Assembly: GCF_003018255.1 (NCBI RefSeq)
Contig: NZ_CP027440.1
Length of the DNA stretch: 64,000 nt
Source: Escherichia coli
GTDB lineage: Bacteria > Pseudomonadota > Gammaproteobacteria > Enterobacterales > Enterobacteriaceae
Reading direction: 5' to 3' (one strand)
Of the stretch, positions 10,647-12,023 are shown one piece after another. Position 1 is the stretch's first letter. Every line of letters begins with the position of its first letter. The notes below the pieces were generated by a model. That model made no database searches, was not told the origin of the DNA, and saw nothing but the letters and a program-made list of their open reading frames with translations. Both the position numbers and the translations under genes were made by a program.

Positions 10647-12023
10647 TTATCTCCGCGTCATCAGAAGAACAGTGACGGATCGCCCGCCCCGTTTGGTCAG
10701 GCGACCGTTTGCCATAATGCCCATGCTTTCCAGCCAGCGTTCAAACTCCGGTGACGGGCGCAGGTTGAGTAACTGACGCACAGTGGCGGTGTCGTGGAAG
10801 GCCGTAGTCTGGTAGTTGAGCATGATGTCATCACCCAGCGGCATCCCCATGATGTAGTTACAGCCTGCGGTGGCGAGCAGGATCATCAGGTTTTCGTTGA
10901 GGTTCTGGTCAGCGTCAGCGTGGTTGGTGTAGCAGCAGTCACAGCCCATAGAGATGCCGCTCAGCTTGCCCATAAAGTGATCTTCTAAGCCCGCGCGGAT
11001 AATCTGGCGGTCGTTGTAGAGATACTCCGGCCCAATAAAACCGACCACGGTGTTGACGATAAACGGATCGTAATGACGCGCCAGCCCATAGTTACGCGCT
11101 TCCATCGTCACCTGGTCAGCGCCGAAGTTAGCGCCAGCGGACAGCGCCGAACCTTGTCCGGTTTCGAAGTAGAGGCAGTTTTCCCCGGCGATACGGTTAA
11201 ACTCTGCACCCACTGCGCGCGCTTCGTCGAGCATCGCCAGCTCCACGCCAAACTCTTTCAGCCCTTTTTCGCTGCCGCAAATACTCTGGAAAATCAGCCC
11301 GCCCGGTGCGCCGCGACGAATCGCTTCGATCTGGGTGGTGACGTGCGCCAGTACGCAGCCCTGAGTTGGGATGTTGAATTTGTCGATCACGCCATAGATG
11401 GTATCCAACACGCGGCTTAAGTTTTCCACGTCGTCAGTCACCGGGTTAACGCCGATCACCGCATCGCCCACCCCGAAGGAAAGCCCTTCGTAGATTTGCG
11501 CGGCGATACTTTGCACATCGTCACGGGTATCGTTTGGCTGCAAGCGGGCGCTAAAGGTGCCCGGAATACCGATGGTGGTATTGGCCTTTTTGATCACCGG
11601 CATTTTCTTCGCGCCGTAGATCAGGTCCGCGTTAGAGCAAATCTTCGCTACCGCCGCTACCACTTCCGAGGTCAGCCCTTTGCGGGTAAAGGCAATGTCG
11701 TCCACGCTGGTTTCATCGCTCAGCACATACTCACGCAGTTCGCTGATGCTCCAGTTTTTAATCTGGTTGTAGGCCGTTTCGTTAACATCGTCCTGAATCA
11801 GCCGCGTCACGCAGTCATCTTCATAGGCAATCACCGGATTATTGCGGATGTCCGCTACGGTCATTTCCGACAACACCTGCTTTGCCGCCACGCGCTCCTG
11901 TGAGCTTGCCGCAGCAACGCCCGCCAGCACATCCCCCGAACGCAGTTCGTTGGCTTTAGCCAGCACCTCTTTTACATCCTTAAACTGATATACATTGCCG
12001 AACAATGTAGTCTTTAGTTTCAT
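10647..12023 (-). CDS. eutB: ethanolamine ammonia-lyase large (heavy) subunit; C-terminal 14 residues differ from canonical (apparent +1 frameshift)
   Basis: 458-aa ORF; N-terminus MKLKTTLFGNVYQFKDVKEV; canonical tail AGDPSLFF-stop is encoded out of frame at ~10660..10686. Confidence 0.9.
   Translation of the reverse strand: MKLKTTLFGNVYQFKDVKEVLAKANELRSGDVLAGVAAASSQERVAAKQVLSEMTVADIRNNPVIAYEDDCVTRLIQDDVNETAYNQIKNWSISELREYVLSDETSVDDIAFTRKGLTSEVVAAVAKICSNADLIYGAKKMPVIKKANTTIGIPGTFSARLQPNDTRDDVQSIAAQIYEGLSFGVGDAVIGVNPVTDDVENLSRVLDTIYGVIDKFNIPTQGCVLAHVTTQIEAIRRGAPGGLIFQSICGSEKGLKEFGVELAMLDEARAVGAEFNRIAGENCLYFETGQGSALSAGANFGADQVTMEARNYGLARHYDPFIVNTVVGFIGPEYLYNDRQIIRAGLEDHFMGKLSGISMGCDCCYTNHADADQNLNENLMILLATAGCNYIMGMPLGDDIMLNYQTTAFHDTATVRQLLNLRPSPEFERWLESMGIMANGRLTKRGGRSVTVLLMTRR

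Follow-up and report, generated by a model that had tools for sequence, protein, structure and literature searches.

The eutB gene encodes the catalytic subunit of ethanolamine ammonia-lyase (EAL), and in the stretch of Escherichia coli DNA analysed here (64,000 nucleotides, hereafter the window) its last codons depart from those expected for the species, apparently through one extra base in a short homopolymer. The question raised by this locus is whether that base is a genuine mutation or an error of sequencing and, if it is genuine, what it does to the enzyme. An earlier note made from the sequence alone had left both readings standing. The eutB open reading frame occupies positions 10647..12023 of the minus strand (stop codon included) and specifies 458 aa, and the altered end reported in that note is borne out both by the map of open reading frames and by translation. 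In a phmmer search against the PDB the best structure is 3abo_A (E = 4.8e-302), E. coli EutB, which is identical over residues 1-445 and then continues with AGD; in addition, PF06751 is on record for the exact 458-aa protein. The operon context is kept as well, with eutA upstream and eutC directly downstream, as read from the map of open reading frames and from the syntenic annotation of E. coli JNE23-011. The canonical length given in the note also proved correct: wild-type EutB has 453 aa and ends ...LTKRAGDPSLFF in E. coli (PDB 3abo, JNE23-011, SMS-3-5 and E2348/69), in Salmonella and in Citrobacter, and none of these references ends in the variant way, ...LTKRGGRSVTVLLMTRR.

The departure can be traced to a run of GGGG on the coding strand (10687..10690, minus strand; CCCC on the plus strand), where the wild type has GGG, two of these bases closing the R445 codon (CGG) and the third opening that of A446 (GCG). 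The proposal that one extra C in this run, CCCC for a canonical CCC, shifts the frame of the eutB end is upheld by JNE23-011, which has GGG on its coding strand; the added base is the single indel between the two sequences. The syntenic gene of JNE23-011 translates to ...RLTKRAGDPSLFF and the window eutB to ...RLTKRGGRSVTVLLMTRR. The minus-strand sequence at the 3′ end of the window gene is ...ctg acc aaa cgg ggc ggg cga tcc gtc act gtt ctt ctg atg acg cgg aga taa cacatc ATG, the last triplet being the eutC start codon. Thirteen new codons (10650..10688, minus strand), read in the shifted frame, supply residues 446-458 (GGRSVTVLLMTRR) in place of the eight residues AGDPSLFF (446-453). G447 is kept by chance, AGD having become GGR, and the conserved C-terminal A-G-D motif and the tail beyond it are absent from the window protein, in which unrelated residues follow GGR. 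The ancestral tail survives out of frame as a 27-nt remnant (AGDPSLFF plus TGA; 10661..10687, minus strand) equal to the eutB 3′ end of JNE23-011. The former stop, TGA at 10663-10661, gives way to TAA at 10649-10647, a displacement of 14 nt, and the gap between eutB and eutC, whose ATG lies at 10640, shrinks from 20 nt to 6 nt. The earlier note had recognised the remnant, the exchange of the tail and the approach of the stop to eutC, and only its figures need correction, since it placed the remnant at 10660..10686, counted nine residues replaced by 14, and gave a displacement of 13 nt.

Whether the extra base is real was addressed by comparing all 64,000 window bases, base by base, with E. coli JNE23-011 (NZ_AP045067.1), the closest complete genome; among RefSeq complete genomes only this and one other are near-identical to the window. 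Across these 64 kb about 36 substitutions and exactly one indel were found, the indel being the extra eutB base, which indicates that the window assembly is not indel-prone. An exact-sequence look-up placed the 458-aa protein in six contigs, among them an NCBI contig of 4.89 Mb, the others coming from Logan assemblies of public runs, and GGGG was present in all four of the Logan contigs retrieved (SRR8931299, SRR13450396, ERR3653869 and SRR7947255). These four assemblies represent three genotypes: two carrier contigs are identical to the window, that of ERR3653869 carries one SNP, at window position 9249, and that of SRR13450396 carries a perfect 19-bp tandem duplication in eutH. As the carriers differ from one another elsewhere, they are not copies of one dataset. 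One of them, SRR7947255, has been described as Illumina data at 46x from strain FWSEC0057, a stx1a/stx2a Shiga-toxin-producing E. coli (STEC) of serotype O185:H28 isolated in 2012 from Canadian river water (PMC6787312).

A homopolymer error of sequencing or assembly, with GGG as the true sequence, would be a natural suspicion at such a site, short homopolymers being classic places for indel errors on some platforms. Against this stand the recurrence of the allele in four independently generated read sets that went through a separate assembly pipeline, at least one of them Illumina, the fact that the carriers can be told apart at other sites, the lack of any other indel when the 64 kb are set beside the nearest relative, and the run itself, which at four bases is short for a systematic error. 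It is not credible that an identical error at a 4-base run should recur in independent Illumina data. In view of the four separate run assemblies and a window without other indels, sequencing error is rejected as highly improbable, and of the two options left by the earlier note it is the real mutation that survives. The eutB frameshift allele is real and inherited. As to the substitutions that separate the window from JNE23-011, about two thirds of them fall within 4.4 kb (window 54165-58598; purM, purN, ppk1 and ppx), the rest of the 64 kb carrying roughly one SNP per 4-5 kb, a pattern suggesting that one of the two strains imported a short segment by recombination.

The age and distribution of the allele were explored with a 40-mer containing GGGG, designed so that every 28-mer seed crosses the run, and this probe had no match among 5,426 RefSeq complete E. 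coli genomes. The wild-type 39-mer used as a control matched 5,223 of the 5,426, of which 5,150 at 100% identity, so the negative result is valid and low-complexity masking of the 40-mer can be discarded as its cause. A 24-mer with GGGG likewise found no match in about 100,000 GTDB species-representative genomes, nor was the allele matched in JGI metagenome contigs, which rules out a recurrent hotspot mutation for these species representatives and metagenomes. Relatives with wild-type eutB were reached by using the window EutA protein as a handle; this EutA allele family is large, with 929 index blocks. In each of the 24 long contigs read that have the same EutA allele, EutB has 453 aa, and GGG is found in each of the four whose DNA was examined (L007-L010). 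One of these four, GCA_029199305.1, lies 1 SNP from the window over 5.6 kb. The presence of GGG in all relatives examined, this 1-SNP neighbour included, implies that the insertion is derived, recent and found in a small sub-clone only. The GGGG allele is thus derived and rare, and it is limited to a small sub-clone within a Shiga-toxin-producing E. coli lineage, in which one carrier is typed O185:H28. A separate observation concerns the 90%-identity protein cluster that holds EutB: it has 11,757 members, many of them named EutA (467 aa), and a representative of 467 aa, and it appears to merge two unrelated neighbouring products, probably via fused or mis-called sequences.

The likely effect on the protein was approached through conservation and structure prediction. 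A library of 1.84 billion proteins, clustered at 50%, was searched with wild-type EutB, and 30 sequences covering the C-terminus (29 matches plus the query) were aligned. Among these diverse homologues A446 is conserved in 27 of 30, G447 in 29 of 30 and D448 in 28 of 30; the sequences bearing AGD include homologues of ~35% identity and natural EutB-EutC fusions, and a less strictly kept P-[ST]-[LIV]-F comes next in the same alignment. Wild-type EutB, modelled with AlphaFold2 from a 41-sequence alignment, has a mean pLDDT of 96.6, with 94 at residues 441-450 and 91 at 451-453, and contains a short helical turn at 449-452; the wild-type tail is accordingly predicted to be ordered and not floppy. 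Given the near-invariant AGD and the predicted order of the lost tail, the altered EutB would most likely fold poorly or assemble poorly with EutC. The best reading is that the tail serves folding or subunit packing and that its replacement, especially the change of D448 to R and the arrival of the hydrophobic VTVLLM, impairs the enzyme. Judged from tail conservation and predicted order, a substantial loss of EutB function appears reasonably probable. On the other hand, 445 of the 453 EutB residues are unchanged, which is a point against impairment, and the known active-site residues (R160, Q162, N193, E287 and D362) all precede the frameshift. A role of the tail as a microcompartment targeting signal was considered and dropped, since a published survey of encapsulation peptides reports none on EutB (PMC4594438).

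The rest of the operon gives little sign of disturbance. The window carries the standard long eut operon (eutS...eutR), free of the prophage insertion seen in some strains, and its other eut genes are intact, with neither nonsense nor frameshift changes. These include eutA, encoding the EAL reactivase (467 aa; 12035..13438, minus strand), and eutC, encoding the EAL small subunit (295 aa; 9753..10640, minus strand), the latter without any nucleotide difference from JNE23-011. The presumed Shine-Dalgarno sequence of eutC, read as GGAG at 10651..10654 (minus strand), is now translated within the extended eutB frame, and the new stop TAA (10647..10649, minus strand) falls inside the spacer between it and the start codon. 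As proximity of stop and start usually favours translational coupling, eutC expression would not be expected to be abolished, judging by the sequence. Two terminator-like hairpins were found at 10674-10692, against 0.7 expected by chance, and were judged not meaningful.

Several further features of the operon deserve mention in their own right. The regulator gene eutR (7401..8525, minus strand) has lost its stop codon at window 7473-7475, where SMS-3-5, with a protein of 350 aa, reads TGG GGG TGA and the window reads TGG GGG GGA; read-through adds 24 more codons to give 374 aa, and the added part runs 67 nt into the 3′ end of hemF, which is convergent. This 374-aa form is common to JNE23-011, where it is annotated as such, which means that the extension predates the eutB frameshift. 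Between eutH and eutG, at window 14692-14976, a 100-bp unit of REP/BIME-like palindromic sequence is repeated in tandem (2.8 copies, 98% identity); its copy number varies in close relatives, L007 and L008 having one or two units fewer. The 19-bp duplication in the eutH of SRR13450396 (CTCGCTGGTTTGAAAAACC; L004 943-981, with copies at 944-962 and 963-981, equivalent to window 13760-13778) breaks that gene into 304-aa and 98-aa pieces and constitutes a second lesion in the same operon. As a sign of impairment it is weak, being an anecdotal case from a single carrier in an automated short-read assembly.

A real mutation may nevertheless be a tolerated one. If the tail were peripheral, the 458-aa EutB would assemble with EutC and work, and the allele would be drifting, nearly neutral, in a small clone. 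Such an outcome would fit with the identity of residues 1-445 to the crystallised enzyme, with the integrity of all other eut genes, with an allele that has lasted long enough for at least three genotypes to be sampled, and with a new stop so near the eutC start that coupling is probably preserved. However, AGD is retained by 27-29 of 30 homologues, even at about 35% identity, which points to purifying selection on the very residues that changed, D448 to R in particular; the tail is predicted to be ordered, and the allele is missing from 5,223 other genomes. Tolerance of the new tail is therefore regarded as possible but doubtful.

It could also be imagined that the wild-type protein is still made, either by programmed ribosomal frameshifting or by transcriptional slippage, or that the G run works as a phase-variable on/off switch. 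The codon at the site, CGG, is seldom used for Arg in E. coli, and codons of low usage can favour frameshifting at a low level. Moreover, one publication describes non-programmed frameshift suppression as occurring in E. coli (PMC10861913). Nonetheless, the frameshifted state is not conserved, with no occurrence against 5,223 control-matched genomes and none in GTDB representatives or metagenomes, and AAA CGG GGC GGG presents no known slippery heptamer, stimulator or prfB-like CUU-UGA motif. Phase-variable homopolymer tracts typically have 7 or more bases and show length scatter among close relatives, and four G are far below the tract lengths associated with transcriptional slippage or phase variation. 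In contrast, the tract considered here has 3 or 4 bases, its 4-G state being limited to one near-identical clone instead of dispersed over several lineages, and the very close relatives all having GGG. Recoding or switching is accordingly scarcely conceivable as an account of this locus.

The explanation that we favour, and consider probable, is that of a genuine, recent and clonally inherited 1-bp insertion, carried by a small STEC sub-clone and probably impairing EutB. According to this model, GGG would have become GGGG on the coding strand near the eutB 3′ end, a change of the kind that replication slippage produces. The reading frame would then shift past R445, exchanging the tail A446-G-D-P-S-L-F-F453 for GGRSVTVLLMTRR, and translation would now end 6 nt short of the start codon of eutC. 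An EutB altered in this way would most likely suffer in its folding or in its assembly with EutC, and EAL activity would consequently be lost or strongly lowered. With the remaining operon, including the regulator eutR, presumably intact, the lesion may represent an early step of eut operon decay in the carrier clone, of which there is no sign yet on a wholesale scale, the other eut genes in the window being intact.

A variant of the favoured explanation, which appears improbable to us, holds that the lesion is adaptive and not plain decay, with EutBC off and EutR kept, or else that the new stop retunes the coupling of EutB to EutC while the enzyme remains active. If the adaptive reading were true, the STEC clone would stop consuming ethanolamine, EutBC would no longer compete with EutR for adenosylcobalamin, and the ethanolamine sensing by EutR that drives EHEC virulence gene expression would be uncoupled from catabolism. 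In its alternative form, it is the position of the stop 6 nt from the eutC start that would alter how EutB and EutC translation are coupled, with an enzyme that is still active.

On the favoured reading of an impairing insertion, carrier strains are predicted to be poor users or non-users of ethanolamine, a nitrogen source from which, according to a review, EHEC gains a competitive advantage in the intestinal content of cattle (PMC5821096). For annotation, the eutB gene of the window should be treated as a genuine frameshifted allele that is not to be "corrected" or polished away, and GGGG offers a clean clonal marker of a small STEC sub-lineage. The allele adds nothing to the understanding of the eut system: it is an ordinary, probably impairing lesion of a known class, neither a new kind of feature nor a surprising one, and a literature search found no paper describing this specific allele.

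Comparison with known systems places the allele more precisely. With respect to E. coli EutB (PDB 3abo; WP_000769961.1; PF06751), the window protein is 100% identical over residues 1-445 and holds the same position between eutA and eutC, and it differs from it in a tail of 13 residues instead of 8, a length of 458 instead of 453 aa, and a stop codon 6 instead of 20 nt from the eutC ATG. Natural lesions of eut genes are common among E. coli strains, an example being EPEC E2348/69 (NC_011601.1 2747554-2756793), which has independent lesions: an ISEc13 transposase interrupts eutA, and prophage tail genes cut eutC short. Like that strain, the carriers show a lineage-specific disruption of the EAL module in pathogenic E. 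coli with the other eut genes retained. Unlike the mobile-DNA insertions of E2348/69, by which genes are clearly destroyed, the single base alters only the extreme C-terminus of EutB, and inactivation is for this reason probable and not certain. The allele also resembles the frameshift pseudogenes that arise by slippage at short homopolymers (the 'frameshifted' class of NCBI PGAP), in being a one-base mononucleotide expansion that is derived and clonally inherited. It departs from them in lying 8 codons from the natural stop, so that the product is not a truncated protein but a near-full-length EutB with a swapped tail.
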